Shown here piece after piece: positions 960 through 63,283 of a stretch of 64,000 nt of DNA. Every line of letters starts with the position of its first letter. Positions within the stretch are counted from its first letter, which is position 1. Below the pieces are notes generated by a model. The model did no database searches, had not been told where the DNA came from, and saw nothing but the letters and a program-made list of their open reading frames with translations. The translations under genes and the position numbers were made by a program. The stretch comes from Candidatus Omnitrophota bacterium (GTDB lineage Bacteria; Omnitrophota; Gorgyraeia; Zapsychrales; Fredricksoniimonadaceae), in contig CAIVRE010000022.1 in the NCBI GenBank assembly GCA_903908245.1, positions 864 to 64,863 on the forward strand, written 5' to 3'.

Positions 960-981
960 AAATATTGGAAAGTAGTATTTG

Positions 982-7455: not shown

Positions 7456-8169
7456 ATGGATCTAAATGACAACGGTTTGGGAGAAAGCGAGCCACTGGTC
7501 AGTGCTGTTCAGTTTTTTGACGATGCTTATTCAACAAGGAAAATTTTATCTCAAGAAGATCGTCTTGAGGTGGTCGATGGAATGCGGCTGGCGGGTCATA
7601 GCATTGCGGAGATTGCCGATGCGACTGGGGTGTCAGAAAAGACAGTTAAGCGCGATATCGAGGAAATAAAGAAAAGAAATGCTTTGAAACTCAACCCGGC
7701 ATTTGCGACTGAAATGGTTGGGGAGCTTATTCGGAAGGCAGGTCAACACTGGCAATCATTAAAATCGATGGCTCGTGATCAGTCGGGCAAGACTAATGAA
7801 AGAATTTTGGCAGAAAAACTGGCTTGGGATGTCGAGTTGAATCTTTGTCGAGAACTGCGTGAAATGGGATATTTGCCTTCTGCGCCCAAGACAGTTATGG
7901 GGCAGATATCGCATCAGGTAAATGTTAGCGCGGATAATACCTGGGAAGAGATTTTTCAGCAGTTCCAGCAGTTGAAGGAGTTGGCTGTTGATCATAATGG
8001 TGTGGTAAATGTTGAAATTCAACAAACATTGGAATTGCTGGGACCGGAGATTCAGGACGGGATCGCCCGGCAAAAAGCGCAAGAAACGTTAAGCGCATCG
8101 TATCAAAAGATAAAGGAGGTTCAAGATGGAAAAGAACGACGCATACCAGATGTTGGAGAAGAAACGTAA
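7456..8169 (+). CDS. phage terminase small-subunit-like HTH protein
   Basis: N-terminal sigma-r4-like HTH (GHSIAEIADATGVSEKTVKRDI). Acidic, coiled C-terminus. Overlaps by 44 nt with, and sits immediately upstream of, a terminase large-subunit gene. RBS GGGGTGAG. Confidence 0.5.
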   Translation: MDLNDNGLGESEPLVSAVQFFDDAYSTRKILSQEDRLEVVDGMRLAGHSIAEIADATGVSEKTVKRDIEEIKKRNALKLNPAFATEMVGELIRKAGQHWQSLKSMARDQSGKTNERILAEKLAWDVELNLCRELREMGYLPSAPKTVMGQISHQVNVSADNTWEEIFQQFQQLKELAVDHNGVVNVEIQQTLELLGPEIQDGIARQKAQETLSASYQKIKEVQDGKERRIPDVGEET

Positions 8170-9982
8170 AAAAGCGGCTCTTTCAAGTTTGGCCAATTTT
8201 CGTAAGGCATATTTGAATAATGCTGCGGATAGTTTCGAAGATTCGCCAGCACATTTTGAAATTATGGAATACTTGGACAATTTGTTAAAGAATCCAGGTA
8301 AGAAATTGGCATTGGCGGCACCTCGTGGTTTTGGAAAAACCGATGTTTTGACGAGTTTGATAATTTATGCTCTTTGCTTGAACAAGTATAATTATATAAT
8401 TATCCTTTCATGCACCGGGCATCAAGCCAGGGAAATGCTGAAAAATGCTAAAGCGCTAATTTTGGGTTGCCCGCTTTTGATGCGTGATTTTCCGGATTTG
8501 GCTTCAAAAGTTTTCACCTTGTCGTCTAGAAAGTTGCTTGAGGTAAATCATACGATCAAGATCGCAGCATTCGGGCTTAAGCAAGGGTTCCGTGGGACAA
8601 AACATGGGCGCAAAAGGCCGGATCTGGTGATAGTGGATGACCTTGACAGTGACAATTATTTACACAATAGAGACGTTAAGGAGAGAATGCGTGAAATTTT
8701 TAACGGCAAGGTGTTGCGGATCGGGCATGAGCGAACGAATATTATTATTACTGGAAATCTTTTTTCACGAAATACGCTGATCTGGGATGTTTTTAATGAG
8801 CCTGCTTACAGAGAATTTGACCACCTTAACTATCAGGCCATTAAGCATTTCCCTAAGAACATGGATCTTTGGGAGAAATATTTTAAGATTTTGACTTCTA
8901 CGGAGAGTTATAAAGGAAGGTCTGGTAAGGAAGTGGCAGGCGATTTTTATCAAGATAATCAGGAGGCCATGGATCACGAATTTGTATCGCTTTGGCCTAG
9001 CCGATGGAGTGCGACCGAATTGTTAACGCAGTTTTTATTAGATCCGGGCAGATTTAAGCGCGAAATGCAGAATGAACCGGCATCTGGTGCCGGGGTTTTT
9101 CCCAGAGAGGACTTAAGGTTCTGGAGGCCGTCATTTCAGTCCAGGAATGCTTTAATAGCATCATTTAGTAAGAATTATCAAGTCTGTATTGCTGTTGATC
9201 CAAGTTATGGCAATGAAGATGGGGACTTTTGCGCGATCGCTGTTGTTGCTAAAGACGGGGGCATCTACTATGTCCTGCAGGTTTTTTTGCTAAAGGTAAA
9301 AGCAAATGAGTTAATAGATAACATCTTTGCGATTGTTGAACGGGAGGGGCGCGCAGTGGTTGCTATTGAAGTTAATGGTGGACAGGAGTATTTGGCTTCA
9401 CGATTGGAGGCCGAGTCGGTAAAGCGGGGGATCCCGATTCATTTAGAAAGGATCACCCACAATAGCAAAACTTCAAAAGACGCTCGGATCAGCGGGCTAT
9501 CCTCATTGGTTAATACTGCGGCGCTATTATTTAATGACGAAGATACATTATTTATTGAACAAATGTGTGATTTTCCATTGGGTAAGCGCAAGGATGGTCC
9601 GGATGCCTTGGAAATGGCGGTAAGAACGCTGATGCCTATGAAGAACGGAGATGGCATTGCTTTTACTTTAGATGTTTTTCAACGAATGCAGAGCAGTTCT
9701 AAGAGTAACGATCCACAGGTTGATGAAACGGAGCTTCTATCGAATGGGTTAAAGGTGCTAAACACTCCAGGGGATTCAATCGACCACATAAACAAAATAT
9801 TTAGGAAGATGCATAGCCGTGACACAGGAGATAATGAGGTTGCTCCAAAACTTGCCTCTTCTGAGGTTAACTCAAATGGTGCTGCGAAAGCAGGTAGCTT
9901 GACACCAGAAAGTGTTTCTGAAGTGGTTCCTTCTGCAGGAGCAGTGTCAAATTATTGGCAAATTTATAAGACCATCCGATAA
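8126..9982 (+). CDS. phage terminase large subunit (ATPase + RNaseH-like nuclease)
   Basis: Walker A LAAPRGFGKT. Walker B LVIVDDLDSD. Nuclease-domain acidic residues (VCIAVDPSYGNEDGDFCAIAVV, DGPDALEMAV). RBS AAGGAGG 7 nt upstream of the ATG. Confidence 0.75.
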   Translation: MEKNDAYQMLEKKRKKAALSSLANFRKAYLNNAADSFEDSPAHFEIMEYLDNLLKNPGKKLALAAPRGFGKTDVLTSLIIYALCLNKYNYIIILSCTGHQAREMLKNAKALILGCPLLMRDFPDLASKVFTLSSRKLLEVNHTIKIAAFGLKQGFRGTKHGRKRPDLVIVDDLDSDNYLHNRDVKERMREIFNGKVLRIGHERTNIIITGNLFSRNTLIWDVFNEPAYREFDHLNYQAIKHFPKNMDLWEKYFKILTSTESYKGRSGKEVAGDFYQDNQEAMDHEFVSLWPSRWSATELLTQFLLDPGRFKREMQNEPASGAGVFPREDLRFWRPSFQSRNALIASFSKNYQVCIAVDPSYGNEDGDFCAIAVVAKDGGIYYVLQVFLLKVKANELIDNIFAIVEREGRAVVAIEVNGGQEYLASRLEAESVKRGIPIHLERITHNSKTSKDARISGLSSLVNTAALLFNDEDTLFIEQMCDFPLGKRKDGPDALEMAVRTLMPMKNGDGIAFTLDVFQRMQSSSKSNDPQVDETELLSNGLKVLNTPGDSIDHINKIFRKMHSRDTGDNEVAPKLASSEVNSNGAAKAGSLTPESVSEVVPSAGAVSNYWQIYKTIR

Positions 9983-10123: not shown

Positions 10124-10300
10124 TTATTTTCGGTCGGCTCTTCTTTTGCCGCAGGCTGACCGGACCGTCCTGCGTGATATGCCCAGGGCTTGAGATATCT
10201 CCCGCTGGGACATCCCTAAAGCCTTAAGTTCATTTGCTTTTTCAATGAACCTCTGGTATAAAGGTTGAGATTGAAGTGGCTCAATGATGATCTTTACAGT
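10124..10300 (-). pseudogene. remnant encoding only a serine-recombinase-like (resolvase/invertase) C-terminal HTH
   Basis: The last ~59 codons (MTVKIIIEPLQSQPLYQRFIEKANELKALGMSQREISQALGISRRTVRSAC...) resemble a resolvase/Hin C-terminal HTH. The 5' part of the track ORF (10301-10528) translates to R/P/S-rich low-complexity sequence through a hairpin-rich region, and no catalytic domain is present. Confidence 0.35.
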
Positions 10301-10350
10301 CATTAGGGACGCGGTTCGAATTGGTTGCAGATGCGTCCGAGTTTCTTCCT

Positions 10351-10447
10351 TAAGATTAAAACCCTCTTCCCGTAAGGGGGAGGGTTTTAATCTTATATCA
10401 GAAGAGAAACGAGGACTCCCGTGAGGCTCCGTCCGAACGGGAGTCTC
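10351..10447 (+). other. two tandem very stable hairpins (16-bp stem capped by a ccc-GUAA-ggg mini-stem with GNRA tetraloop, then an 11-bp bulged stem). Possible structured RNA, leader, or recombination-site remnant.
   Basis: Hairpin 1: taagattaaaaccctc / gagggttttaatctta are perfect reverse complements around cccgtaaggg. Hairpin 2: gaggactcccgt...acgggagtctc. Upstream, ggacgc(N21 containing ggttcgaat)gcgtcc. The GNRA loop exists only in plus-strand orientation. Confidence 0.4.
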
Positions 10448-10532
10448 GATTAAAACAGCGAACCTTATCGACGACATGCGAACTTTATTCCGTCTTGAGT
10501 TGTCGTGGGTGTGAGCTTGAGGAGTCAACGTA

Positions 10533-32456: not shown

Positions 32457-33818
32457 ATGAATAAAAATATCCGCCTTGAACTGGAAGATCAGCTTCTGGA
32501 CCGCCTGAAAGGCAAGGTCAAGCTTTTACAGCCCAGCCTCGAAAAAGAAGAGCTCGCTCTTGCCACGCTGGAATCAGTCCTCGTCAATGACAAGTCCCGT
32601 AAATTCGCCAGTGAGTTTTCGTCGGGGGAGGAAAAGACGGATTTTATCCGGTCATTCCTTTCCTACGGGCTGATCGAGGAGCTTTTGTGCAACGGCGATG
32701 TGGAAGATATTGTTATCCACGGGTTGAAGCCTATTTATATCCATCATGCCGAAAAAGGTTTTATATCAACGGGAAAAAAGTTCGAGCATATCCGCGAGCT
32801 GGAAGTCTTTATGAAGAAGCTTCTGATTTTCGGCGGCCGGGAGACGGTCAAGCGTGTCCTTGATCTTGAGCTGGCGAACCTGGGGGGACGTGCGAATATC
32901 ATTACTTCCCCTTTCGGCGCGCAGATCACGATCACCAAGGCCAAGGTCGATCCGATCAGCATCCTTGACCTTATCGAGCGCGGGAGCATGACCTATGAAG
33001 TGGCGGCCCAGCTGTGGGTTTATGTGGATGGTTTGTCAATCCGCCCGGCCAATATCATGCTGGCGGGCGGGCCTGGAACGGGCAAGACCACGCTTTTAAA
33101 CGCCCTTTTCAGTTTTATTCCCGAGAAGGACCATTTGATCATTATCGAGGATACCCTCGAGCTCAACACGTTTTTGATGGACACGGTGTCGCGCCTGGAG
33201 AGCGATGAAGAGCTGAGCCTGGCGGACCTGGTGAAGAACAGCCTGCGCATGCGCCCTGAGCGTATTATTATTGGTGAGGTGAGGGGTATTGAAGCGCGCG
33301 ACATGATCACATCCATGAATGTTGGTAAATATTGCATGTGCACCATCCACGCGCTGACATCCCGCGAGGCGATCACCCGTTTGCAGAACGAGCCGATGAA
33401 TATCCCCGAGACGCTGGTGAACCTGATCGATGTCTTTCTGGTATTGAAACGGTATCATGTTAACGGACGGTTGTTCCGTGTGGTGGACGAGGTCAGCGAG
33501 ACCGGAGGGATGGAGCAGAAGAAGATCCTGTTATCGCCGGTTTACAAGTACAATTATGAACAGAATAAGGTGATGATGATGTCGCCCAGTACGGTCTATC
33601 GTGACCGGCTGGCGCGCGAGGCGGGGATCACGCCGCGCGATATCATTAATGAGACCCTTATTCGCGCTGTTGTCCTTAAACAATTGCATGGCAAGGGAGT
33701 GCATACGCTTAAGGATGTCACCACTTTCTGCAAGGCTTATCGTGTAGATCCCTCTGATGCAATGACCCGTATCGGCCTTAACCGGAACAATCTGCTAAAG
33801 GAAGTTTCCCACCTTTGA
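32457..33818 (+). CDS. CpaF/TadA/VirB11-family secretion ATPase (orphan)
   Basis: Walker A GGPGTGKTT. Asp box IIIEDTLEL. Walker B RIIIGEVRG. His box CMCTIHA. Confidence 0.75.
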   Translation: MNKNIRLELEDQLLDRLKGKVKLLQPSLEKEELALATLESVLVNDKSRKFASEFSSGEEKTDFIRSFLSYGLIEELLCNGDVEDIVIHGLKPIYIHHAEKGFISTGKKFEHIRELEVFMKKLLIFGGRETVKRVLDLELANLGGRANIITSPFGAQITITKAKVDPISILDLIERGSMTYEVAAQLWVYVDGLSIRPANIMLAGGPGTGKTTLLNALFSFIPEKDHLIIIEDTLELNTFLMDTVSRLESDEELSLADLVKNSLRMRPERIIIGEVRGIEARDMITSMNVGKYCMCTIHALTSREAITRLQNEPMNIPETLVNLIDVFLVLKRYHVNGRLFRVVDEVSETGGMEQKKILLSPVYKYNYEQNKVMMMSPSTVYRDRLAREAGITPRDIINETLIRAVVLKQLHGKGVHTLKDVTTFCKAYRVDPSDAMTRIGLNRNNLLKEVSHL

Positions 33819-33926: not shown

Positions 33927-34000
33927 GCGCCCATAGCTCAATTGGATAGAGCATTTGACTACGGATCAGAAGGTTGTAGGTTCGACTCCTACTGGGCGCG
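33927..34000 (+). tRNA. tRNA-Arg (anticodon ACG)
   Basis: Cloverleaf: acceptor GCGCCCA/TGGGCGC, D-arm GCTC-AATTGGATA-GAGC, anticodon loop CTACGGA, T-arm GTAGG-TTCGACT-CCTAC. No encoded CCA. Confidence 0.8.
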
Positions 34001-34036
34001 TTCTTCTCACCGGCATCCAAGCCGGTATTTTTATTT

Positions 34037-34504
34037 ATGGATATTGACTTTCAGTCCCACGAAGTGATGATGCGCGAAGCATTAAAGCTTGCGCGCCGCG
34101 CCGCTGATGCCGACGAGGTCCCGGTGGGGGCCGTGATCGTTCATGGCCGGGATATTATTGCCCGTGCCTATAATCAGGTGGAAATGCTCAAGGACCCGAC
34201 CGCGCATGCGGAGATGATCGCTATCACTCAGGCGACGAATCATCTTGGTTCCAAATGGTTGCATGAGTGTGTGATGTATGTTACAATCGAGCCCTGTTCG
34301 ATGTGTTCGGGGGCGCTCGTTCTGGCCAGGATCGAAAAAGTTTTTTTTGGCGCGGCTGACCCCAAGACGGGGGCGTGTGGTTCGGTGATCGATATTCTTC
34401 GGAATAAAGACCTGAATCATCAGGTTGATGTGGCGGGCGGGTTGCTCAAGGATGAATGCGGCGCGTTGATGAGCGAGTTCTTTAAAAAGAAGCGCAAGAA
34501 ATAG
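34037..34504 (+). CDS. tadA: tRNA-specific adenosine deaminase TadA
   Basis: HAEMIAI...PCSMCSGAL zinc-deaminase motifs. 155 aa. Confidence 0.85.
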   Translation: MDIDFQSHEVMMREALKLARRAADADEVPVGAVIVHGRDIIARAYNQVEMLKDPTAHAEMIAITQATNHLGSKWLHECVMYVTIEPCSMCSGALVLARIEKVFFGAADPKTGACGSVIDILRNKDLNHQVDVAGGLLKDECGALMSEFFKKKRKK

Positions 34505-34520
34505 ATTTTCCGAGTGTAGT

Positions 34521-34599
34521 GGAAACTTCTATCCATTCGTCGGGCTGATAGCCCGTCGTGATGGATAGAAGTCTCCAAAACTCTCGGAGAGAGTTTTGG
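34521..34599 (+). other. two strong hairpins between tadA and tRNA-Ser, without a U-tract
   Basis: Hairpin 1: a 16-bp outer stem (ggaaacttctatccat/atggatagaagtctcc) enclosing a 9-bp inner stem (cgtcgggct gat agcccgtcg). Hairpin 2: ccaaaactctc gga gagagttttgg, a perfect 11-bp stem whose 3' arm overlaps the first nucleotides of tRNA-Ser. Confidence 0.5.
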
Positions 34600-34686
34600 A
34601 GAGGTGCCAGAGTGGCCGATTGGAGCTTCCTGCTAAGAAGTTGACTGGGGAAACCTGGTCCCAGGGTTCGAATCCCTGCTTCTCCG
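34598..34686 (+). tRNA. tRNA-Ser (anticodon GCU), long variable arm
   Basis: Acceptor GGAGAGG/CTTCTCC. Anticodon stem GCTTC/GAAGT with loop CTGCTAA. Variable arm tgactggggaaacctggtc. T-arm CAGGG-TTCGAAT-CCCTG. Confidence 0.75.
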
Positions 34687-34772
34687 TTTTTTTTTGTAAA
34701 AGCAAGCTGTCGATATTGACAAGCCAAAGATTATAGTTATAATTCATCCACATTTGTTTTTTATAGTTTTAT

Positions 34773-34848
34773 TCCCCTGTAGCTCAGTTGGTAGAGCATG
34801 TGGCTGTTAACCACAGTGTCCGAGGTTCGAGCCCTCGCGGGGGAGCCA
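34773..34848 (+). tRNA. tRNA-Asn (anticodon GUU), CCA encoded
   Basis: Acceptor UCCCCUG/CGGGGGA with U1-A72 as in E. coli tRNA-Asn. D-arm GCTC-AGTTGGTA-GAGC. Anticodon loop CTGTTAA. T-arm CGAGG-TTCGAGC-CCTCG. GCCA 3' end. Confidence 0.8.
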
Positions 34849-51200: not shown

Positions 51201-51339
51201 GGGTGCCGCGGGGCGCTTTAACATGGGCTTGGTCATATCCAGCGGTATTGCCATTGGAACCGCTTTTACGCTGTTCGTTGTGCCGGCCATGTACCTGATG
51301 CTGGCGGCGGACCATTCAAAAAAGGGTTTCCCAGCCTGA
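48262..51339 (+). CDS. RND inner-membrane multidrug efflux pump (AcrB/MexB, HAE1)
   Basis: 1025 aa. 12 TM with two large periplasmic loops. Start MSFTDIFVKRPVLATVVSL typical of AcrB. Confidence 0.85.
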   Translation: MNMENSRMSFTDIFVKRPVLATVVSLFIFVLGLRAVNLLGVREYPETQNAVVTVTTVYTGADPAVVAGFITTPLENSIAQANGIDYLTSSSTSNVSVIKANLRLNYDANKALTEINTKVNAALNQLPREAQQPSITVAVGESTDSMYMGFYSNALATNKITDYLIRVVQPKLQTVEGVQTAEILGGRQFALRAWLDPQKMAAHGITAVDVSNALAANDFIAAVGRTRGMMVTADLTAATGLHSVEQFRDLIIKSQGGAQVRLGDVANVSLGSEDYDSAVAFDGENAVFIGIKVAPSANLLTVIEGVRKAFPEIQSQLPEGLEGRVIYDATKYINSSIHEVIKTLFESLLIVTLVIFLFLGSFRSVVIPAVAMPLSLVGALFMMLIFGYTINLLTLLALVLAIGLVVDDAIIVVENIHRHIEEGIAPLEASLRGARELANPIIAMTIVLVAVYVPIGFMGGLTGALFTEFAFTLVGAVAVSAVVALTLSPMMCSKMLRHHDAGGRKTFTDIIDQQFERLRGTYERTLHGALNYLPVIAVFALIVLGSACFLYISSRSELAPQEDQGFVLAMYTGAPTASLEQTGIYSGQVYDILKEYPETEHVFQINGLGGLNAGLAGIVLKPWEERKRSAVQFQAGLQMKLGGLAGVNGVSFLPPPLPGGGEGLPVQFVIGTTDSSTRLNEVANAFLEKAMASGMFMFIDTDLKIDKPQTEIQIDREKAAQMGLSMRDVGSVLGSMLGGGYVNYFSLSGRSYKVIPQVMRRERLNADQLMNYYITTASGASVPISTIASLKTSVVPQSLNHFQQLNSATISGVQMPGVPLGQALAKLKEIGKEVLPQGYSFDHAGQSRQFVKESSALVITFFFALLIIFLALAAQFESFRDPLIILVSVPMSICGALIFIALGIGGASLNIFTQVGLVTLIGLISKHGILIVQFANDQQREGKSKREAIETAAGIRLRPILMTTAAMVFGVMPLVLASGAGAAGRFNMGLVISSGIAIGTAFTLFVVPAMYLMLAADHSKKGFPA

Positions 51340-51447
51340 TTTGTGTCAAAATTTTGCGGTTGTTTATAGGTATTTCTATCCACGTAGGGAGAATTCTTTT
51401 CTATATAAGAGGGTCAATATCTGGATTTTCGTGCGGCCAGATTTAAT

Positions 51448-51476
51448 TTGACTTTCTCAAGCCTCTTGATTATTAT
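51448..51476 (+). promoter_or_regulatory. putative sigma70 promoter TTGACT-17-TATTAT upstream of comEA
   Basis: Read directly, ~95 nt upstream of the comEA ATG. Confidence 0.35.
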
Positions 51477-51572
51477 ACAAAATATTTTGATTTTTCTCCG
51501 AACTCTTCCGATCAGAGTAATGGTGATAACCCCCCGGTTTTTCTAACGATTTCATAAAAAAGGATCGCGGAT

Positions 51573-51917
51573 GTGTTTTATTTAACCCCACAGGAGCGCA
51601 TTGCGCTTATTAGTCTGTTGGTCATTTTCTGCTTCGGCACGTTGGTGAGTGTCGCGCTTAAACAAGATGCGCGTATCATCCATTGGGTTAAAACCGCGCA
51701 TCAAGTTAAGTCAACGTATCCATTGAACATCAATATAGCAACAGCGGAAGATCTTGATAAATTGCCTGGCATCGGATTAAAGACCGCCCAAAGGATCATC
51801 GACTATCGGCAAAGTTATGGAAAATTCAAGTCCGCGGAAGACGTACGCCAGGTGAAAGGCATTACCAGGAAGGCATTGGAGACAATTACCCGAGATTGTC
51901 GTTTTGAAGCGTTATGA
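51573..51917 (+). CDS. comEA: ComEA-like DNA receptor (helix-hairpin-helix)
   Basis: N-terminal TM. HhH: NINIATAEDLDKLPGIGLKTAQRIIDYRQSYGKFKSAEDV. Confidence 0.8.
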   Translation: MFYLTPQERIALISLLVIFCFGTLVSVALKQDARIIHWVKTAHQVKSTYPLNINIATAEDLDKLPGIGLKTAQRIIDYRQSYGKFKSAEDVRQVKGITRKALETITRDCRFEAL

Positions 51918-53320
51918 AAACCCATCGTCCTTCATTCGTGTTAGCGATCGTATTAAGTGCCGGTATCACGGTGGGGAAGTTTTTGCCCTTGCCGTTCTTA
52001 TTCTGGGTCGCTTTATTGTGCGGATTTACTTTATGGGCGATGATCGGCCGCAAGTCATGGATTGTTTTCGCGGGAATGTTCGCCTTTGGGGCTGTATTGA
52101 TCATCAATGTATATCGTCTCGCCCCTGACAGTGCGGCCCTGCTTTCCTATGACGACCGTCAGGATATCCGCATGACGGAAGGGGTTGTAGATTCAAATCC
52201 GCGAATACGGGCATGGGCACAGGGAGGCCAGGCCGTTTTCGATCTGAAAGTAAGACGGATCTTAACTGAACAGGGATGGATATCTCAACGCGGGAAAGTT
52301 CAGGTGCAGGTGTACCAGAACAGGCCTGTTCATTACGGGCAATTGCTGCGCGTACAGGGCCGCTGGCATGCCATTTATGACGGGAATGGTAACGGGAAAT
52401 TTTCTTATCGCCAGTGGTTGCAAGAGCGGGGTATTTTCTGGGCGGTGAGTGTTGGGAAAAACGCTTCACTGGAGATCTTAAGTGAAGATCAGGGCAATTG
52501 GCTGGTCGCTCAGTCGTTCAAGCTCCAAAAGAAGTTCAAGGATGTTTTTGAACATTATCTGGACCGGGAAGAGGCCGGTATGATCATTGCCATGGTCCTG
52601 GGAGAAGGCACGGCCATGCCCAAAGAAATACAAACGGAATTTATCAACACGGGAACGGCGCATGTCATTGCTATCAGCGGTATGAACATGACCATCATCA
52701 TAACGATCGTATTTTTTATTTTCCGATTTTCCGGCTTGCCGAGGGCAGGGCAATTGATAGGGACGGCCTTGTTTTTATTCGCCTATGGGTTCTTGACCGG
52801 GTTCTCCGCATCTGTGGCAAGGGCCTGCATCATGTCATCGGTCATCCTCTTGTCTTTTGCGGCTGAAATGGAAGCGGAGGTTTTTAACTCGTTGGGACTG
52901 GCCGCGTTGATGTTATTGCTTGCATATCCCAAAGATCTTTTTAATATCGGTTTTCAACTTTCGTTCGCGGCCGTACTGGCGATCCTGGTGTTGAATAAAC
53001 ATTGCTTGAAATTATTCAGCCGGTTTCCCGAGGTCCTGGCAACGGCATTGGCGGTTTCATTAGCGGCTTGGGTCGGGACCGCCGGGTTAATTTTTTATTA
53101 TTTCAAAATGATCACGCCGATCTCGATCATTGCCAATATCCCAGTTGTCCCTCTGGCAGACCTTACCGTTGCGCTGGGGCTGGGGTTAGGCCTTGCGGGA
53201 TTGTGCTGCCCTCCTTTGGCTGACGCATTCGCCGGATGTTTGAAGATCGTCTTTAACGGGATGCTTCTATTTGTCCATTGGTTTAACCAGGTGCCTTATG
53301 GGCATGCCAATTTCAATTAA
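51914..53320 (+). CDS. comEC: ComEC/Rec2 DNA channel protein lacking the C-terminal metallo-beta-lactamase domain
   Basis: DUF4131-like OB region. Competence domain (GTAHVIAISGMNMTII...). Only 468 aa, ending directly before the PLD nuclease gene. ATGA overlap with comEA. Confidence 0.75.
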   Translation: MKTHRPSFVLAIVLSAGITVGKFLPLPFLFWVALLCGFTLWAMIGRKSWIVFAGMFAFGAVLIINVYRLAPDSAALLSYDDRQDIRMTEGVVDSNPRIRAWAQGGQAVFDLKVRRILTEQGWISQRGKVQVQVYQNRPVHYGQLLRVQGRWHAIYDGNGNGKFSYRQWLQERGIFWAVSVGKNASLEILSEDQGNWLVAQSFKLQKKFKDVFEHYLDREEAGMIIAMVLGEGTAMPKEIQTEFINTGTAHVIAISGMNMTIIITIVFFIFRFSGLPRAGQLIGTALFLFAYGFLTGFSASVARACIMSSVILLSFAAEMEAEVFNSLGLAALMLLLAYPKDLFNIGFQLSFAAVLAILVLNKHCLKLFSRFPEVLATALAVSLAAWVGTAGLIFYYFKMITPISIIANIPVVPLADLTVALGLGLGLAGLCCPPLADAFAGCLKIVFNGMLLFVHWFNQVPYGHANFN

Positions 53321-53329
53321 AGGAGACTT

Positions 53330-53893
53330 ATGAGATCGTTATTTGTCATATTGTTTTTGGTTCAGGCCCCGCTGTTGTGTTTTGCTGAAACTATGGAAGT
53401 CCATTTTTCACCCAACGGAGGATGCCAGCAGGTTATTGTCGACGAGATCGACCTGGCCAGAGTAAGAATGGACATCGCAATGTATTTTTTAACCTCCCGG
53501 GATATTGTGCAGGCTTTGGTCAGGGCTAAGGAACACCAGGTACAGGTGAGGGTGGTTTTTGATAAAAGCCAGAGAATACAGTCGTATTCTAAGGCCGCAT
53601 ATTTGATCAAACGGGGTTTCGAGGTCAAGTATCATACGGGGGAGGGACTGATGCACAACAAGTTCGCGGTGATCGACGATCATATTCTGATCACCGGTTC
53701 TTTTAACTGGACTCCTACGGCTGAGCGTAACAATGAAGAGAATTTGTTGATCATCAAAGATGCTCCGATCATAGCGAAGTATCGGGAGCGGTTTGAATAT
53801 TTATGGGGCCAGGCGCAAGCGGGAGAAGTAAAAAAAGAAGATGGCTTAAGGGAAAGGCTTTGTTTAATGTTCCCGGGGTTATGTGGAGATTAA
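53330..53893 (+). CDS. secreted phospholipase-D-family (single HKD, Nuc-like) endonuclease
   Basis: Signal peptide. HNKFAVIDDHILITGSFNWT = H-x-K-x4-D-x6-G-S-x-N. 187 aa, a single HKD copy. Confidence 0.75.
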   Translation: MRSLFVILFLVQAPLLCFAETMEVHFSPNGGCQQVIVDEIDLARVRMDIAMYFLTSRDIVQALVRAKEHQVQVRVVFDKSQRIQSYSKAAYLIKRGFEVKYHTGEGLMHNKFAVIDDHILITGSFNWTPTAERNNEENLLIIKDAPIIAKYRERFEYLWGQAQAGEVKKEDGLRERLCLMFPGLCGD

Positions 53894-53977
53894 GCCTTGT
53901 TCGATATTCTTTAATTTTGTTAATTCGAAGGTCAGGTTAGATGGGCCCATCAGAGAATTTTGGCGATCTTTTCTGTG

Positions 53978-54006
53978 ACTTGTGAAAGGTGCTGTTGCGG
54001 TATAAT
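53978..54006 (+). promoter_or_regulatory. putative sigma70 promoter ACTTGT-17-TATAAT
   Basis: Read directly, ~70 nt upstream of the 54078 gene. Confidence 0.3.
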
Positions 54007-54077
54007 ATGTTAGGCAAAGAAGATGTTTTGTTATTGCTTCTCGACAATGGGTCGCACGATCAAAGGCCGAAATATTC

Positions 54078-55061
54078 ATGAACGATCTTCTTGATAAAAC
54101 GAACAAATTCAAGCCGTTGCTACGTGGGTTTATCGTAGTTGTTCTGACATTATTTCTATTGTCGGCGGGTATAGATTGTCTCATAAAGTTTGCTATTGAA
54201 ACGACCTCCCCGCGAATTATCGGTGCTAAAGTACAAATGGAGACTTTCTCATTAGGGCTTTTGACGCATAAAATACATATAAAGAATCTTCGACTTTATA
54301 ACCCGCCGGCTTTTCCTGATCAGGTTTTTCTTGTTATGCCTGAAGTTATGGTAGATGTGGATGTTGTGGGGCTTATTCAAGGCAGGATGCATTTTCCTTT
54401 GGTTGTTTTTAATATGGAGAAAATGATCATTTTTAAAAATAAAGAGGGCGGGGTTAATGTTAATTCGTTAAAGATCATAAAAGAACATTTAGCAGCAAAT
54501 AAAGATAAGCCGATGAAGCTGCCTGTCTTTAAGATAGACCTGCTTGAGTTAAATGTAGGGAAAGTGATCCTGGAAGACTATACTCATGCACCTCCGGTAC
54601 TTGTCGAGGCTTATGATGTCGCCATCAAGAACAAGAGGATCAGCAATATTGATGGGGTCCCCAAACTGATCGCTTCTGTCACTCTTGAGGCATTGAAACC
54701 GACAGCTATCCGTAGCGCAGGATTTTTTGCTGCAGAAACTTTATTGGGCATCGGGTTCCTGCCTGCCGCTGTTATCGGCATTGCAGTAGCTCAGGACGAT
54801 GTTAAAACCGACCTTGGATATTCTTTTAACAGGGTTTATCATGAAAGTTTAAAATTAGTCCAAGACTTGGGAGCCGTGAAGAAAGAAGACCCAGGAAAAG
54901 GGCAAATTCTTGCCAAGGTTTATTCGAGCGATATTACTATCGATATCCAGAATAAAGGATGGAACAGATCGCATATCAGGATCCAGGCCAGACGGTATTT
55001 CTTAGCCAGGCTTGAGATCGCCAATGGATTATTGTATCAGTTGACACAAAGGCTGAAGTAG
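54078..55061 (+). CDS. hypothetical membrane-anchored protein (AT-rich)
   Basis: N-terminal TM. 327 aa. No confident family (weakly AsmA/DUF748-like). Confidence 0.45.
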   Translation: MNDLLDKTNKFKPLLRGFIVVVLTLFLLSAGIDCLIKFAIETTSPRIIGAKVQMETFSLGLLTHKIHIKNLRLYNPPAFPDQVFLVMPEVMVDVDVVGLIQGRMHFPLVVFNMEKMIIFKNKEGGVNVNSLKIIKEHLAANKDKPMKLPVFKIDLLELNVGKVILEDYTHAPPVLVEAYDVAIKNKRISNIDGVPKLIASVTLEALKPTAIRSAGFFAAETLLGIGFLPAAVIGIAVAQDDVKTDLGYSFNRVYHESLKLVQDLGAVKKEDPGKGQILAKVYSSDITIDIQNKGWNRSHIRIQARRYFLARLEIANGLLYQLTQRLK

Positions 55062-57457: not shown

Positions 57458-60400
57458 ATGTTTCAGGCATGGACAAAGAAGATCGCGGTTGTCGTGATGG
57501 TCCTGGCGGGGAGTGTTTTTGTTTTGACTGCGAGGCCGATCTTCGGTCAGAGTGCGGGCCTGAATTCGTATCAGGCCGCGGAGCAGTTTTTCAGTGAAAA
57601 ATCCTATCAGCTTGCTTTAGACCGGTATAAGGCGTTTGCTGCTCAGCCCGGGTTAACGGCTGAGCAGAAGAGGGAGGTGTCCTTTAAGATCGCGGATTGT
57701 TCCTGGCGCAGTGGCAATTCCGGGTTTTATGAGGAAGCTTCCTTGGCGCTCAAGCATATTGTTATCGCTCCTGACCATGACCGCTGGTGGGCCGAGGCTA
57801 ATCAGTCCCTGGCCGAGTTTTTTATCCAGAACGACCGTTATCCCCACCGGGAAACCATTAAAACATTGTTGATGTCCGCCCGCGAATTTTGGAGCGGCTA
57901 TTCGGATACCGGGGTTGCCCGTCCGCGTTTTATCCGTGCGACGTTTGAGCTGGCGGAGTATGTGACTTCCAGTTGGGGATGGTATTTCGAGGCGCCGAAC
58001 CAGAATTATCAGGCTCAGAAAGAAGACGACCTTATCCCTCCGCCGGAACATCCTGGCCCGGTCGGGATCAAGGATCTGATGCAGGACATCCTTAAAGTCG
58101 CGGACAAGGCCGAGGACAAGGCCAGGGCGACGTTCATGCTGGCCACGGCCAGCATGAATACCTACGATCAATCCCGGCAGAAGGATGCGGAGAAATATTT
58201 TGAAATATTGACGAAGGATTACAGCACGAGCGAATGGGTCGACGATGCTTATTATCAGCTTGCGACGATGTATCAGCAGCACCAGGATTTTGTGAAGGCG
58301 GTCGCCGCGTACCAGGCCCTTCTTGCGAAGTTCAAGCCCGGCGAGTCGCAGTTCGTGGATGACGCCCAGCGTAATATCAAGGAGATCACGACCCCGGTGA
58401 TCCAGCCGGGTGTCGGGTATAATTTTCTGCCGGATTCCCAGGTCCGTTTTTCCCTGCGCTGGCGCAATGTCAATGAGGCTCAATTCACATTTTACAAGAT
58501 GGACCTTACGGAAGAACTGCGTTTTGATCCTATCAAGGTCACGGCGTATGATCGAGGGGTGGACAATTATGCCCGGCTTCTGAAGATCATGGTCGATACC
58601 AGGAGTTATGAGCGTTTGCCGGTGGCTCTGAGTTTCCACCGGACGCTGAAAGACGAAGGCAAGCATCTTTGGATGAGTGAGGATAAAGGCCTGGCCGAAT
58701 GGCAGATGCCGGAAGATAAGGAGGCCAAACCTGATCCGAAGTCCGGGATCCTTGCACCGGGCGCATATCTCCTGATGGTGAAGAGCAGGGAAACCGTTGC
58801 TTATGAGATGGTCGTGGTCTCTGACCTCGGGTTGGCGGTCAAGACCGCGGGGGGGAGCGCTCTCTTTTTCGCTTTCGACACGGCCAGTGGTGAGCCGAAA
58901 TCTGGTGCCAAGGTCAAATATCAATACCGTTATTACAAGAATGGCAATTATGAGTGGGACGAGGGCGCGGGGAATACCGATGAGGACGGTATCCTGAGGG
59001 TGAATTTGATGGAGGGGGATCAGCGCTACAACAACCAGCATCAACTGTTCGCGGTTGTTTCTGACGGGGAAAAACAGGCCTTTTCCCAGAGCAATTATTA
59101 TTCGTATTATGGAAATCGTGGAGAATTCTGGCTGTACGCGTTCGCTGACCGGCCGGCGTATCGCCCTAACGAGGAGGTGTCTTTCAAGGGAACGTTGCGG
59201 CGCTATGACGGGAGTACTTTTTCGACGCCTTCTCGCCTGCCGGTCAAGGTGATCCTTTATGATGCCCGTAACACCAAGGTCCTGGAGAAGGCCTACACGC
59301 TCAATGATTTTGGTTCTTTTAGCGACAGCCTGACGCTTGATGAGAAGGCAACGCTTGGGGAGTACCGTATGGAGCTTTATGCCGGCGATGGTAGCAGTCA
59401 GCTCGCGCGGGCGGCCCTGTTCCGTCTGGAGGAATACAAGCTTCCCGAATTTACGGTGACGGTGAAGCCGCGGCCCAAAGGTGAGGGGCAGTTCGCTAAT
59501 GCTTACCGTCTGGGGGACAAGCTCTCGCTTGATCTTGATGCGCAGTATTATTTCGGCGGCCCGGTGCCGAACGCGAAAGTTGAGTACCTGATCTATGAGC
59601 GGCCTGATCAGCATACGTATTATCCGGTGAGGCCGTATGAGTGGTATTACACCCAGGATCAGCAGCGGAACAATTATTATGGCAATGGACAGCTGCTTAA
59701 GAAGGGCGAGGCTGTAACGGACGCCAATGGCAAGGCGCTTATTGAATTTGAGACGGACAAGGCCAAGGGGTATGACCTTGCGTATCGCGTTGAGGCCCGC
59801 GTGGTGGATGAGAGCCGCCGCGAGATCACGGCTACGGCCGAGATCAAAGTGACTGCAAAGTCATTCTTCATATGCCAGACGCCGCGCCGGAATCTGTATC
59901 GTCCAGGGGATAAAACAGAGATCGACATTAAAACGATGACGGCTAATGACGAGCCGGTTTCGATCGAAGGCAAAGTGTCGGTCAGCCGGCATTGGTGGCA
60001 CGAGCCGGTTGTTGTTTCCAGTGAGGCTCGGTCGGACAAGGCCGTTCCCGCGCAGAATTTGCCGGCATCTCCCTATAATGATGAGGTTCTATTTACTAAA
60101 TTCATTAAGACCGATGCCAAAGGTCAGGCGGTCTTCGAGTTTTCACCTGAGCAGAATGGCTATTACAGCGTGATGGTCACCGGGTTCGATGTGGACGGAA
60201 GCCCGATCGAGTCCACGGTCAATGTTTATGTTTGTGACAAGCAGGCGAACGATATCGGTTACCGGTACAGCGGTTTGCAGATCATCGCGGAGAAGGATAC
60301 GTACAGCGTCGGGGACACGTTGCGACTGATGCTGGTGTCGGACAAGCCAGGTGCCCGTGTGCTCCTTTCGGCAGAGGCCGGGGAGATCGAGTCGGCCCAG

Positions 60401-63283
60401 CTGGTGCGGATGGACGGCCCGGTCAAGCTTGTTGAAATGCCGGTGACAGACATGTTCACACCGAATATTTTCGTGACGGCCGCATCCGCCAGCGACCAGC
60501 AGATCCGGATGCATGAACTCGAGTTGATCGTTCCGCCGGAAGGCCACTTCCTGAACGTTAAAGTGACCTCGGACAAGCCTGTTTATGGCCCGGGAGAGAA
60601 GGGAGAGTTCGGGGTTGAGGTTACCAACAGCAAAGGGCAGCCTGTTGTGGCGGAGCTGGGCTTAAGCCTTGTTGACGCGAGCGTGTTCTATATTCAGTCG
60701 GAATTGGCCGGGGATATCCGTCAGTTCTTTTTTGGAGACAAGCGTCCGCATAGTGTGCAGCTGCAGTCATCATTGAATCAGCGGCCTTATTTCAAGGTTG
60801 TCAACAAAGACCAGCCGTCTGTTGACGGGAATGAACGGGCCATGAATGGGGTGGATGCGGAGAAATCAGGAGCTGTCGGGAGAATGAAGTCGTCGGCGGA
60901 TGATATCGGTGTGCAATTCGCGGCTTCGGCGCCTGTCATGAGTGAATCCATGTCTTATGACAGGAAGGAAGAGTCCGGGAAGAAAATGCTGGCCAAGGGA
61001 GGCATGATGAATGCTTCTCGCCGGGAGTTGGAGCCTCAAGCCGCTCCCGCAGAGCTTGCTGAGGCGCAGGTCCGGCAGGATTTTCGTTCGACCGTCTTCT
61101 GGGGGCCATCGGTCGTGACGGACCAGCAGGGCAAGGCCAAGGTTTCGGTCAAGTTCCCGGATCCTCTGACGACCTGGCGGGCGACCGCGCGGGCGATCAG
61201 CCTGGGGACCGACATTGGCAATACGACTTATGATGTGACGACCAAAAAGGATATTATCGTTCGCTTGCAGGCGCCGCGGTTCTTTACCGAGCGCGATCAA
61301 GTCACGGTTTCGGCCAATGTCCATAATTACACAAAAGAGAAGCAGCATATCAAGGTGACGTTGAAAGCGTTGGGTGTAGATCTTGATGGTGCTTCGGAAG
61401 TGTGGGTTGATCTTGACCCGCAGGGAGAGAAACGTGTTGACTGGAATGTGTTGGCCGGCAAGGCGGGGCTGGCGGAGTTGACCGCCATGGCCCAGACCAC
61501 GACCGTGTCGGACGCGATGCTCAAGAAGTATCCGGTCATCCCGCATGGCATCGAGAAGTTCATTGCCAGGGCACTTGCGCTTAAGGCAGATGAGGGTGGC
61601 GCCGCGGATGGCGAGGTGACTTTTGATGTCCCGAAGGAAAGGATCAAGGAGTCCACATCGCTGCGCCTGACACTTTCTCCATCGATGGCCGCGGCCATGC
61701 TTGACGCGCTCCCGTATCTTGCGGATTATCCTTACGGTTGTGTTGAGCAGACCATGAGCCGTTTTTTGCCGGCCGTGATCGTGGCCAAGACCATGCGCGA
61801 TCTGGGGTTTGACAAGAAGGATGTGGATGACTATCTGGCGAATGTCCTTGAGCCGCGCAATGATCCCAAGGGCCATCCGCAGCGGCGCGATGATGCAACC
61901 TATTCGCGCTTGAATGACCTTGCCAGGGCAAGCCTGGACCGGCTTTATGATTTTCAGCATCCTGATGGAGGCTGGGGCTGGTGGAAGGGTGGCGATAGCG
62001 ACCGGTTCATGACCGCGTATGTGTTTTGGGGGTTGATGCTCGCCAAGGACGCGGGTAGCGATGTGCGCGGCGATGTGGTGTCGCGCGCGCTTCAGTATAT
62101 GGATAAGAATCTCGTTGAGGAAGAGAATGATCCGGATATGCTTGCATGGATGCTGCACGCCATGGCCTATGCGAAGTATCAAAGCCAGTTCCAGGATAAA
62201 CAGATCGCGCGGCTCTGGGATATGCGCGAGAAACTTAATCCTTATACGCGGGCGCTCTTTGCTGTCGGGCAGAAAGTCCGCGGCAGGGAGGACGAGGCGG
62301 CGATCCTCGCACGCAATGTTGTCAACGGGGTCATGAAGGACGACGGGGATCAGACCGCGCACTGGGGGGAAGCCGGTATGAACTACCGCTGGAGTGAAGG
62401 CGGGGTTGAGGCGACCGCCTTCAGCCTGAAGGCACTCGTTAATATCGAACCGCAAAGCGAGCTTATTGCGCCTGCGGTCAAATGGCTGTCGTTGAACCGC
62501 CGTGGAGCGAGTTGGAAGAATACCCGCGATACGGCGATCGCGATCCTGGCGCTTGCGGATTACTTGAAAGTGTCTGGCGAGTTGAACCCGGACTATGATT
62601 ATGAAGTGCTCCTTAACGGTAAGGCGATCCAGCAGGGCCATGTGAATGCGGCCAATATGTTCACTTTCGGGCGTTACATTGATCTTCCCGCTGAAGCGGT
62701 GAAGGACGGGGTGAATACGGTCAAGGTGAAAGTGAACGGGAAAGGCGCGTTGTATCTCTCGGCTTATCTGAAATATTTTACTCTTGAGGAGAATATTACG
62801 CCGGAGGGTAACGAGATATTCGTCGAACGGAAATATTTCAAGCAGTCGCAGAAAGAGACGTTGCTTAAAGGTTATGTGGAGGACTGGAAACCTCTTGCGG
62901 ATGGCGATACGCTTCAGAGCGGTGACCGCGTCAAGGTCGAGCTCGATGTTGAGGCCAAGAACAATTACGAGTATCTGATCTTCGAAGATGCGAAGCCGGC
63001 CGGGCTTGAGGCCATGGAATTAAAGAGTGGTGATGGATACGCCGAGGCGCTGGATAACAATGGTAAAGCGACCGGCGAAAAGGCGTACCTGTATCAGGAG
63101 TTCCGTGATCAGAAGGCCGTGTTCTTTGTCGACAAGATGAAGCAGGGCCACTATCGCATTGCGTATGAACTGCGGGCCGAGATCCCCGGTGATTTCCATG
63201 CCATGCCCGACCAGGCGCATGCGATGTATGTGCCCGAGATCCGCGCCAACAGTGCAGAAGGGCGGATGAAGGTGGTGGATTAA
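57458..63283 (+). CDS. bacterial alpha-2-macroglobulin-family protein (1941 aa) with thioester motif
   Basis: Signal peptide. DYPYGCVEQTMS (CxEQ thioester, cf. E. coli YfhM CLEQ). Repeated MG-like beta domains. Confidence 0.75.
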   Translation: MFQAWTKKIAVVVMVLAGSVFVLTARPIFGQSAGLNSYQAAEQFFSEKSYQLALDRYKAFAAQPGLTAEQKREVSFKIADCSWRSGNSGFYEEASLALKHIVIAPDHDRWWAEANQSLAEFFIQNDRYPHRETIKTLLMSAREFWSGYSDTGVARPRFIRATFELAEYVTSSWGWYFEAPNQNYQAQKEDDLIPPPEHPGPVGIKDLMQDILKVADKAEDKARATFMLATASMNTYDQSRQKDAEKYFEILTKDYSTSEWVDDAYYQLATMYQQHQDFVKAVAAYQALLAKFKPGESQFVDDAQRNIKEITTPVIQPGVGYNFLPDSQVRFSLRWRNVNEAQFTFYKMDLTEELRFDPIKVTAYDRGVDNYARLLKIMVDTRSYERLPVALSFHRTLKDEGKHLWMSEDKGLAEWQMPEDKEAKPDPKSGILAPGAYLLMVKSRETVAYEMVVVSDLGLAVKTAGGSALFFAFDTASGEPKSGAKVKYQYRYYKNGNYEWDEGAGNTDEDGILRVNLMEGDQRYNNQHQLFAVVSDGEKQAFSQSNYYSYYGNRGEFWLYAFADRPAYRPNEEVSFKGTLRRYDGSTFSTPSRLPVKVILYDARNTKVLEKAYTLNDFGSFSDSLTLDEKATLGEYRMELYAGDGSSQLARAALFRLEEYKLPEFTVTVKPRPKGEGQFANAYRLGDKLSLDLDAQYYFGGPVPNAKVEYLIYERPDQHTYYPVRPYEWYYTQDQQRNNYYGNGQLLKKGEAVTDANGKALIEFETDKAKGYDLAYRVEARVVDESRREITATAEIKVTAKSFFICQTPRRNLYRPGDKTEIDIKTMTANDEPVSIEGKVSVSRHWWHEPVVVSSEARSDKAVPAQNLPASPYNDEVLFTKFIKTDAKGQAVFEFSPEQNGYYSVMVTGFDVDGSPIESTVNVYVCDKQANDIGYRYSGLQIIAEKDTYSVGDTLRLMLVSDKPGARVLLSAEAGEIESAQLVRMDGPVKLVEMPVTDMFTPNIFVTAASASDQQIRMHELELIVPPEGHFLNVKVTSDKPVYGPGEKGEFGVEVTNSKGQPVVAELGLSLVDASVFYIQSELAGDIRQFFFGDKRPHSVQLQSSLNQRPYFKVVNKDQPSVDGNERAMNGVDAEKSGAVGRMKSSADDIGVQFAASAPVMSESMSYDRKEESGKKMLAKGGMMNASRRELEPQAAPAELAEAQVRQDFRSTVFWGPSVVTDQQGKAKVSVKFPDPLTTWRATARAISLGTDIGNTTYDVTTKKDIIVRLQAPRFFTERDQVTVSANVHNYTKEKQHIKVTLKALGVDLDGASEVWVDLDPQGEKRVDWNVLAGKAGLAELTAMAQTTTVSDAMLKKYPVIPHGIEKFIARALALKADEGGAADGEVTFDVPKERIKESTSLRLTLSPSMAAAMLDALPYLADYPYGCVEQTMSRFLPAVIVAKTMRDLGFDKKDVDDYLANVLEPRNDPKGHPQRRDDATYSRLNDLARASLDRLYDFQHPDGGWGWWKGGDSDRFMTAYVFWGLMLAKDAGSDVRGDVVSRALQYMDKNLVEEENDPDMLAWMLHAMAYAKYQSQFQDKQIARLWDMREKLNPYTRALFAVGQKVRGREDEAAILARNVVNGVMKDDGDQTAHWGEAGMNYRWSEGGVEATAFSLKALVNIEPQSELIAPAVKWLSLNRRGASWKNTRDTAIAILALADYLKVSGELNPDYDYEVLLNGKAIQQGHVNAANMFTFGRYIDLPAEAVKDGVNTVKVKVNGKGALYLSAYLKYFTLEENITPEGNEIFVERKYFKQSQKETLLKGYVEDWKPLADGDTLQSGDRVKVELDVEAKNNYEYLIFEDAKPAGLEAMELKSGDGYAEALDNNGKATGEKAYLYQEFRDQKAVFFVDKMKQGHYRIAYELRAEIPGDFHAMPDQAHAMYVPEIRANSAEGRMKVVD

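Follow-up and report, generated by a model that had tools for sequence, protein, structure and literature searches.

The DNA considered here, a 64,000-nt stretch of a contig of Candidatus Omnitrophota (hereafter, the window; positions given without a locus handle are those of the whole stretch), encodes the DNA receptor ComEA, a short form of the DNA-import channel ComEC without a metallo-beta-lactamase (MBL) nuclease domain and, directly behind it, a small single-HKD nuclease of the phospholipase D (PLD) superfamily, here called Nuc, with a predicted export leader. The hypothesis that we favor, and to which we give about an even chance of being right, is that nuc represents a recently recruited, co-expressed periplasmic nuclease that serves as an accessory in processing DNA on the uptake route. 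That is, nuc is most likely an add-on in this clade and not the general solution of ComECs that lack the MBL domain. We found no description of an operonic comEC-PLD arrangement in the literature, and the arrangement appears to be new; already known are the DC-type ComEC, ComEA, the PLD nucleases of the Nuc/NucT type, and the idea that a PLD nuclease might serve an MBL-less ComEC.

The three genes follow each other head-to-tail on the + strand, and their open reading frame (ORF) coordinates confirm the order comEA, short comEC, nuc on one strand that had originally been described. comEA (51573..51917, +) encodes a membrane-anchored helix-hairpin-helix (HhH) DNA receptor of 114 aa with an N-terminal hydrophobic segment, which matches HHH_3 (E=2.1e-18) and exceeds the cutoff of TIGR00426, the model of the ComEA HhH repeat region (64.8 vs. 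53.1 bits). Its stop shares the tetranucleotide ATGA with the start of comEC (51914..53320, +), that is, the two genes overlap by 4 nt, and the TAA stop of comEC is followed by a 9-nt spacer, AGGAGACTT (53321..53329, +, read from the sequence), which includes a Shine-Dalgarno AGGAG, and then by the ATG of nuc (53330..53893, +). A candidate sigma-70-type promoter upstream of comEA (51448..51476, +; TTGACT-17-TATTAT), which is a consensus match only (10/12 positions), was the sole + strand promoter-like site in a consensus scan of 51300-54200, with no + strand candidate between comEC and nuc. Given the 9-nt Shine-Dalgarno spacer, the missing internal promoter candidate and the retention of this junction in five contigs (see below), comEC and nuc are very probably co-transcribed. 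No RNA elements were detected within the operon (the only Rfam matches in the window are three tRNAs located elsewhere), and no meaningful or flanking repeats that would mark a mobile element were seen around nuc. It was also observed that, in each of the five contigs, nuc continues the reading frame of comEC after one stop (TAA or TAG) and three sense codons (window, 53318-53332; L165, 1996-2010; L166, 1944-1958; L167, 1287-1301; L168, 141-155). Read-through of the stop would yield a ComEC-Nuc fusion in which the Nuc signal peptide becomes an extra hydrophobic segment; the shared frame is probably a single inherited coincidence, with a 1 in 3 chance of arising.

The 468-aa ComEC is predicted to consist of three transmembrane helices, an OB fold and a channel domain of eight transmembrane helices. 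Pfam places the OB-fold (DUF4131) region at residues 25-182 (51986..52459, +; E=1.5e-23) and the Competence (channel) domain at residues 227-464 (52592..53305, +; PF03772, E=3.3e-54, profile positions 1-242 of 270), and gives no Lactamase_B match in the protein. ComEC scores above the cutoff of TIGR00360 (84.1 vs. 36.5 bits) but below that of TIGR00361, the full-length ComEC/Rec2 equivalog (100.8 vs. 190 bits), of which it covers only model positions 37-338 of 663. Hydropathy predicts 11 hydrophobic segments (3 + 8), the last of which ends near residue 454, and the AlphaFold2 model (pLDDT 83) shows helices at 6-66, a beta-rich domain at 87-190 and then an all-helical domain up to residue 458 of 468; since the protein thus ends ~10-14 residues past its last helix, there is no room for a residual MBL fold. 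A fold search with this model returned only weak SSB-type OB folds, the searched copy of the PDB apparently not including the full-length ComEC cryo-EM structure. Further, a custom MBL profile derived from the C-terminal domains of 13 full-length ComECs gave no match when run over all six frames of the window (best E=2.4), whereas in control loci it matched 41 ORFs, and MBL was not among the 25 families listed from a Pfam census of 43 other window proteins. Hence, the original prediction of a 468-aa ComEC without an MBL domain is borne out by Pfam, the partial TIGR00361 match, hydropathy, the structural model and the custom profile, with no residual MBL found in the scan of 51914-53320.

Among the features of a DNA-import channel, the Competence domain, an OB fold placed after three transmembrane helices and linkage to comEA were all found, and the C-terminal MBL nuclease domain was not; by its domain content, this protein is a DC-type ComEC, which represents a recognised subtype (PMC6299819). 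Its layout agrees with the cryo-EM description of ComEC as a protein with 11 transmembrane helices, three of them ahead of the OB fold (PMC13539106). In other words, the window ComEC shares with the canonical three-domain ComEC (e.g., of B. subtilis and Moorella) the OB fold, the Competence domain, the three helices before the OB fold, the total of eleven helices and a comEA immediately upstream (PMC13539106), whereas the MBL nuclease domain is present only in the canonical form. Because eight helices are predicted after the periplasmic OB fold, the C-terminus of the window ComEC is predicted to be in the periplasm, which would be the same compartment as that of the nuclease.

The product of nuc (187 aa) is a predicted exported, single-HKD endonuclease of the PLD superfamily and matches PLDc_2 with E=5.6e-32 and 111 bits (Pfam). 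Its catalytic motif, HxK(x)4D(x)6GSxN (53654..53707, +), is exact as read from the translation (H109-x-K111-x4-D116-x6-G123-S124-x-N126), and these columns are invariant in an alignment of 17 sequences. The four NucT models of NCBIfam are the top NCBIfam matches of the protein, all of them below cutoff (best for the NucT equivalogs, PRK13912, 68.7 bits against a cutoff of 297), so that the window protein is NucT-like by sequence but does not merit the name NucT. When a profile of 17 homologues was searched against the PDB sequences, it retrieved MitoPLD/Zucchini (2e-27), Nuc (1BYR, 2e-25) and NucT (6EHI, 5e-19). Similarly, a Foldseek search with the AlphaFold2 model of the monomer (pLDDT 84) ranked 1BYR first (E=6.7e-15, target-normalised TM score 0.88, rmsd 1.8 Å, 29% identity), followed by 6EHI (E=8e-14) and 4GGJ (E=1.5e-13). 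By profile and predicted fold, then, the protein is an endonuclease of the Nuc/NucT/Zucchini type, a family of cation-independent nucleases that form homodimers with one composite active site. The predicted signal peptide spans residues 1-19 (53330..53386, +; MRSLFVILFLVQAPLLCFA), with a mean Kyte-Doolittle hydropathy of ~2.4 followed by an AxA-like site (CFA|E), and all of the 17 aligned homologues (17/17) carry an equivalent leader ahead of a conserved mature start, xVxFSPNGG, from which we infer export to the periplasm. The earlier description of a single-HKD nuclease with an exact motif nine nucleotides past comEC holds with its ORFs and coordinates exactly as given, and the signal peptide included in that description is predicted from hydropathy. 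In addition, the protein ends in a C-terminal tail (…GLRERLCLMFPGLCGD; residues ~163-187, i.e., ~25 residues, 53816-53890) of low model confidence that is not found in Nuc or NucT. The two Cys of this tail are conserved in many, not all, homologues and Cys32 is invariant, a pattern suggestive of disulfides formed in the periplasm; the tail also occurs outside the ComEC-linked clade.

The linkage of comEC to nuc was found only in the window and in L165, L166, L167 and L168, that is, in five contigs with four distinct sequences that make up one shallow clade, within which ComEC identity is 76-80% and PLD identity 68-81%. The junction is common to all five contigs when read from the upstream in-frame ATG: a stop, 9 nt with AGGAG or AGGGG, and an ATG. 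The dN/dS ratios were low for all three genes (0.08-0.15 for nuc, 0.09-0.13 for comEC and 0.12-0.16 for comEA), revealing purifying selection on each, and the pairwise dS values of nuc and comEC were essentially equal (0.80 vs. 0.80, 1.51 vs. 1.53, and 1.35 vs. 1.17), with the junction being kept despite synonymous sites near saturation (dS 0.8-1.5). The low dN/dS together with the shared dS indicates that comEA, comEC and nuc have been inherited as a unit under selection since the ancestor of the clade. In the next ComEC relatives (44-57% identity; L001-L004 and L169-L172), comEA-comEC is followed by brnT-brnA/HSP20 or by clpB/HSP20. Specifically, the order is comEC-brnT-brnA in L001 and L169 (brnT-brnA at 7470-7965 and 6482-6992, respectively) and comEC-nuc-brnT-brnA in L165 and L167 (2737-3242 and 2030-2535); in the window, brnT-brnA is not directly downstream. 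The comparison of L165 with L001 and L169 points to insertion of nuc between comEC and brnTA, and such an insertion in one shallow lineage would be the simplest history.

The short ComEC has a wider distribution than this linkage. In a homologue search of 5.8 billion proteins, almost all of the closest ComEC homologues were 450-530 aa long with DUF4131 and Competence only, those with a name being Candidatus Omnitrophota, and three-domain ComECs turned up only below ~32% identity to the window ComEC. Judged from these homologues, the MBL-less ComEC is the normal form across Omnitrophota, a member of the PVC group, and a lineage trait rather than a truncation. Such short forms are common elsewhere as well, given that 14/51 competent strains have the DC profile (PMC6299819, Pimentel and Zhang) and almost half of ComECs are without the C-terminal domain (PMC8579336, Silale et al.), and how organisms whose ComEC has no MBL domain get rid of the non-transforming strand, by degradation or displacement, is an acknowledged open question (PMC8579336; for Helicobacter pylori, PMC12455585, Stedman et al.). 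An HHH_3 protein was encoded upstream of the short ComEC in 27/38 loci, and the usual Omnitrophota order was comEA-comEC-bamD(YfiO/TPR)-lptE, with bamD in 19/38 and lptE in 16/38 short-ComEC loci. In L005-L060, for instance, comEA and the short comEC are accompanied by a bamD lipoprotein gene (~315 aa) and lptE (~185 aa), whose ends sometimes overlap (e.g., L008, 7640-8605 and 8602-9138), so that the DNA-uptake genes of typical Omnitrophota sit in an operon-like cluster with genes of outer-membrane biogenesis.

The presence of another nuclease family beside short ComECs was considered and rejected: a census of 108 neighbours yielded HhH (ComEA), bamD/YfiO-TPR and LptE, and the sole nuclease-like matches among them were three MBL ORFs of split or frameshifted ComECs. 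Loci of Patescibacteria/Saccharibacteria, and one of Syntrophaceae, carry behind a short ComEC ORF a distinct ORF matching the ComEC MBL domain (E=1e-56 to 1e-75; L078, 5752-7230 and 7203-8033; L083, 5736-7268 and 8361-9245; L051, 1884-3023 and 3027-4367). They may represent split ComECs or else frameshifts of the assembly. If they are genuine, a separately encoded nuclease domain directly 3' of comEC exists in nature.

Members of the PLD family are numerous, and hardly any of them is linked to comEC. We sampled the family in 80 metagenome loci centered on the PLD gene (64 of them with at least 500 nt upstream) and recognized two classes of neighbourhood. In the first, the PLD gene has a GAF/HD-GYP gene diverging from it, a gene for a small TPR protein beside it and between one and three type IV pilin genes converging on it; this synteny is found in L173 (8344-12566) and in ~30 further loci among L090-L154, with the tandem pilins on the opposite strand (N-terminus GFTLVEIMIVVAIIALLAAIAIPNLLRA) and no pilus-assembly genes near these loci. 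In the second class, which includes the nearest outgroups of the window PLD (54-62% identity), the PLD gene is followed by, or fused to, a gene for a small exported Zn-binding protein of the Ada type, often with an FHA protein upstream. The Ada-type partner is 81 aa long (PF02805) and has its own signal peptide (MVKRLLTSFLLGFCLLSFAGVG...; L176, 8553-8798; L175, 1457-1702; L177, 989-1234), and fused PLD-Ada-Zn forms occur in L087, L088 and L098 (P0138, P0168 and P0285). Once exported, this protein could assist the nuclease by binding DNA, and an Ada-Zn domain that may bind DNA would fit a nucleic-acid substrate outside the cytoplasm for the PLD family.

Several known systems resemble parts of this arrangement. 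The best structural match of the window protein, Nuc of the Salmonella plasmid pKM101 (1BYR), is likewise a small protein with a single HKD motif of the form HxK(x)4D(x)6GSxN and is exported to the periplasm, as predicted for the window protein, but is plasmid-borne and without the extra Cys-containing C-terminal tail of ~25 residues. We know of no link between pKM101 Nuc and competence genes. Closer in context is H. pylori NucT, a periplasmic endonuclease with a 23-aa signal peptide that prefers single-stranded DNA (PMC5714352, Celma et al.). It has been suggested to remove the complement of the imported strand by degradation, and the ComEC of H. pylori, too, is without an MBL domain (PMC5714352, PMC12455585). 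H. pylori, however, uses ComH and a type IV secretion system rather than ComEA (PMC6877725). NucT (HP0323; fold match 6EHI) resembles the window protein in being a single-HKD PLD endonuclease with a signal peptide (predicted in the latter) in a host with an MBL-less ComEC, although the two share only ~26% identity and the window protein falls below every NCBIfam NucT cutoff and is not an orthologue in that sense. To our knowledge, nucT is not adjacent to comEC in H. pylori, as opposed to nuc, which is operonic with comEA-comEC in the window.

In S. pneumoniae, ComEC keeps an MBL domain, which is probably inactive. S. pneumoniae EndA and B. subtilis NucA provide examples of membrane or extracytoplasmic nucleases that are encoded apart from ComEC and process incoming DNA (PMC8579336), but they have an unrelated beta-beta-alpha-metal finger fold with a DRGH motif (PMC5714352) and are metal-dependent, as opposed to the cation-independent PLD chemistry of NucT. 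Finally, Chlamydia trachomatis, which belongs to PVC like Omnitrophota, has a ComEC homologue without the lactamase-like domain (CT339), for which a neighbouring gene has been proposed as the source of the nuclease (PMC6686042); the candidate there is RNase Z (CT346), an MBL-fold enzyme and not a PLD protein, and it is a proposal only (PMC6686042).

Under the hypothesis that nuc is an accessory of DNA uptake, ComEA would bind incoming double-stranded DNA in the periplasm and the short ComEC, with its OB fold and channel, would import one strand. Nuc, the gene of which would have been inserted recently behind comEC and would now be coupled to it both translationally and transcriptionally, would be exported into the same compartment, where it may cut or nick ComEA-bound DNA to provide ends for entry, or digest the strand that is not imported; the acquired DNA would then serve recombination or as a source of nucleotides. 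The exact biochemical step assigned to Nuc is speculative.

A number of observations weigh against this hypothesis. The association of nuc with comEC consists of adjacency alone in one shallow clade, at a site 3' of comEC that is variable and is occupied by brnTA, clpB or HSP20 in relatives. To assess the linkage more broadly, we assembled a ComEC-centered sample of 84 loci (80 with one genome per species, plus four closer relatives), of which 72 have at least 700 nt downstream and 40 of those 72 carry a short ComEC, and searched it with a PLD profile sensitive enough to detect Nuc and NucT. No PLD gene was found within ~6 kb of ComEC in any of the 84 loci (0/40 for the short-ComEC loci with readable downstream sequence), no ComEC in the 80 PLD-centered loci, and no ComEC-PLD fusion protein among the 120 listed of 221 matches to a chimeric Competence-plus-PLD query. 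The two assemblies in which both gene types are present (GCA_041643055.1 and GCA_041643115.1) are metagenome assemblies of >10,000-35,000 contigs each and not single genomes. Thus, the conserved linkage that the original prediction implied is not seen (0/84 ComEC loci, 0/80 PLD loci), the five contigs being its sole occurrence. Moreover, bamD and lptE, which are functionally unrelated envelope genes, routinely adjoin comEA-comEC in Omnitrophota, so that, in this phylum, belonging to one operon is poor evidence for a common function. No terminator was found downstream of nuc, a non-specific periplasmic endonuclease could equally destroy the transforming DNA, and the transformation defect of H. 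pylori nucT mutants is only mild (PMC5714352). With a narrow clade, other MBL-less ComECs of the phylum without such a neighbour, and operons that mix unrelated functions, the arrangement is a lead and not an answer.

Alternatively, it is possible, although in our view rather doubtful, that the adjacency is meaningless, i.e., that a general secreted or periplasmic nuclease, employed in nucleotide or phosphate scavenging or in the degradation of extracellular DNA, was inserted by chance and is read through from the comEA promoter. The abundance of the PLD family, almost always apart from comEC, and the changing occupants of the site behind comEC (brnTA, clpB/HSP20 or bamD-lptE) are in line with such an event, and a purine-salvage role has been documented for NucT in work cited in PMC5714352. 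However, a junction of stop, 9-nt Shine-Dalgarno spacer and ATG that is kept at dS values up to 1.5, with matched dS between nuc and comEC, argues for a coupled arrangement that has been maintained, and the scavenging of extracellular DNA and its import by ComEC are not mutually exclusive.

A more specific, and unlikely, alternative is the one that the original prediction had put forward, namely that the PLD nuclease is a dedicated in-trans replacement of the MBL domain, docked on or near ComEC and degrading the strand that is not transported. Its premises stood, since the MBL domain is indeed absent and the protein does belong with the Nuc/NucT-type nucleases, and further points can be listed in its favor: the slot 3' of the short comEC is the position of the MBL domain in full-length ComEC and in the split versions (L078, L083), nuclease and ComEC C-terminus probably share the periplasm, enzymes of the NucT type can prefer single-stranded DNA and the same role has been proposed for NucT (PMC5714352), and the way in which the second strand is removed where ComEC has no MBL domain is acknowledged to be open (PMC8579336, PMC12455585). 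The substitution itself did not hold up as well, because the linkage is not conserved and the loss of the MBL domain is older. That is, a large Omnitrophota radiation descends from an ancestor already without the MBL domain while the linkage is recent, and ComEC relatives at 28-57% identity are without an adjacent PLD gene. The PLD gene arrived long after the MBL domain was lost, an intact and conserved short ComEC persists in sister lineages with no PLD gene beside it, and the PLD family sits elsewhere in almost all other cases; each of these argues against recruitment of the nuclease as compensation for that loss. The survey results (0/40 short-ComEC loci with PLD, 0/80 PLD loci with ComEC, no fusions among the matches listed), the association of the PLD family elsewhere with an Ada-Zn protein or with the TPR/pilin/GAF-HD-GYP neighbourhood, and the mild phenotype that is all the H. 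pylori precedent offers also count against a dedicated replacement.

A broader version of the same idea, to which we assign a slightly smaller probability still, holds that exported PLDs of the Nuc/NucT type dispose of the non-imported strand for DC-type ComECs generally and are usually encoded elsewhere, as in H. pylori. If this were true, the Omnitrophota clade with an operonic nuc would be the genomic giveaway, and the enzyme would act on the periplasmic side of ComEC, its DNA being bound by ComEA or the OB fold.

Roles in defence or lipid metabolism are, even taken together, very improbable. A component of a defence system or mobile island (DISARM DrmC-like, or cargo that moves along with brnTA) was suggested by a weak similarity to DrmC (37 bits in PADLOC, 47 bits in NCBIfam) and by brnT-brnA adjoining nuc in L165 and L167, but we find it hardly credible: the DrmC match is generic to PLD proteins and, at 47 bits against a cutoff of 133, far below those to PLDc_2 (111 bits), Nuc and NucT, while brnTA also occurs in relatives without PLD and no flanking repeats were seen. 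Membership in DISARM was rejected on this weak score, on the lack of drmA/drmB-type or other DISARM partner genes nearby (the neighbours of Nuc are comEC and a DUF748 protein), and on the predicted export leader, whereas DrmC is cytoplasmic. Least credible of all is a role of the protein in modifying phospholipids, in the manner of a cardiolipin or phosphatidylserine synthase, as the JGI automatic product names of homologues and weak NCBIfam matches to ClsB and cardiolipin synthase would have it. The protein has a single HKD motif and ~170 mature residues, and in sequence and fold it comes closest to the nucleases Nuc, NucT and Zucchini, whereas a lipid synthase carries two HKD motifs, is of much greater size and yields far lower scores.

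The remainder of the window contains a few other features of note. Two adjacent large genes at 979-7235 encode an AddAB-like helicase-nuclease pair, i.e., a 1030-aa protein with AddB-N and PD-(D/E)XK and a 1054-aa protein with a UvrD helicase and PD-(D/E)XK. A gene at 8126-9982 shows a weak match to the RNaseH-like domain of the terminase large subunit (E=8e-6) and is flanked by genes for small sigma-70 region-4/HTH proteins (7456-8169 and 10124-10528, the latter on the - strand), with the GC content falling to 0.42 over 8-12 kb; the segment 7456-10528 may be what remains of a phage. The window also has three tRNA genes (33927-34845) and a gene for an ATPase of the type II secretion/type IV pilus type (T2SSE; 32457-33818), with no pilin-motif ORFs anywhere in it, and a bacterial alpha-2-macroglobulin of 1941 aa (MG2, A2M bait region, TED and bMG10) is encoded downstream of the operon at 57458-63283. 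The + strand carries nearly all of the genes, and the GC skew, positive in each of the 2-kb bins, accumulates steadily, consistent with the whole window being on the leading strand of one replichore.

In conclusion, a PLD nuclease that is coupled to comEA-comEC and under selection provides a concrete, clonable candidate for addressing the open question of what happens to the second strand when ComEC has no MBL domain. Further, the comEA-comEC-nuc arrangement would represent independent genomic support for the old and weakly supported hypothesis that NucT plays this role in H. pylori.

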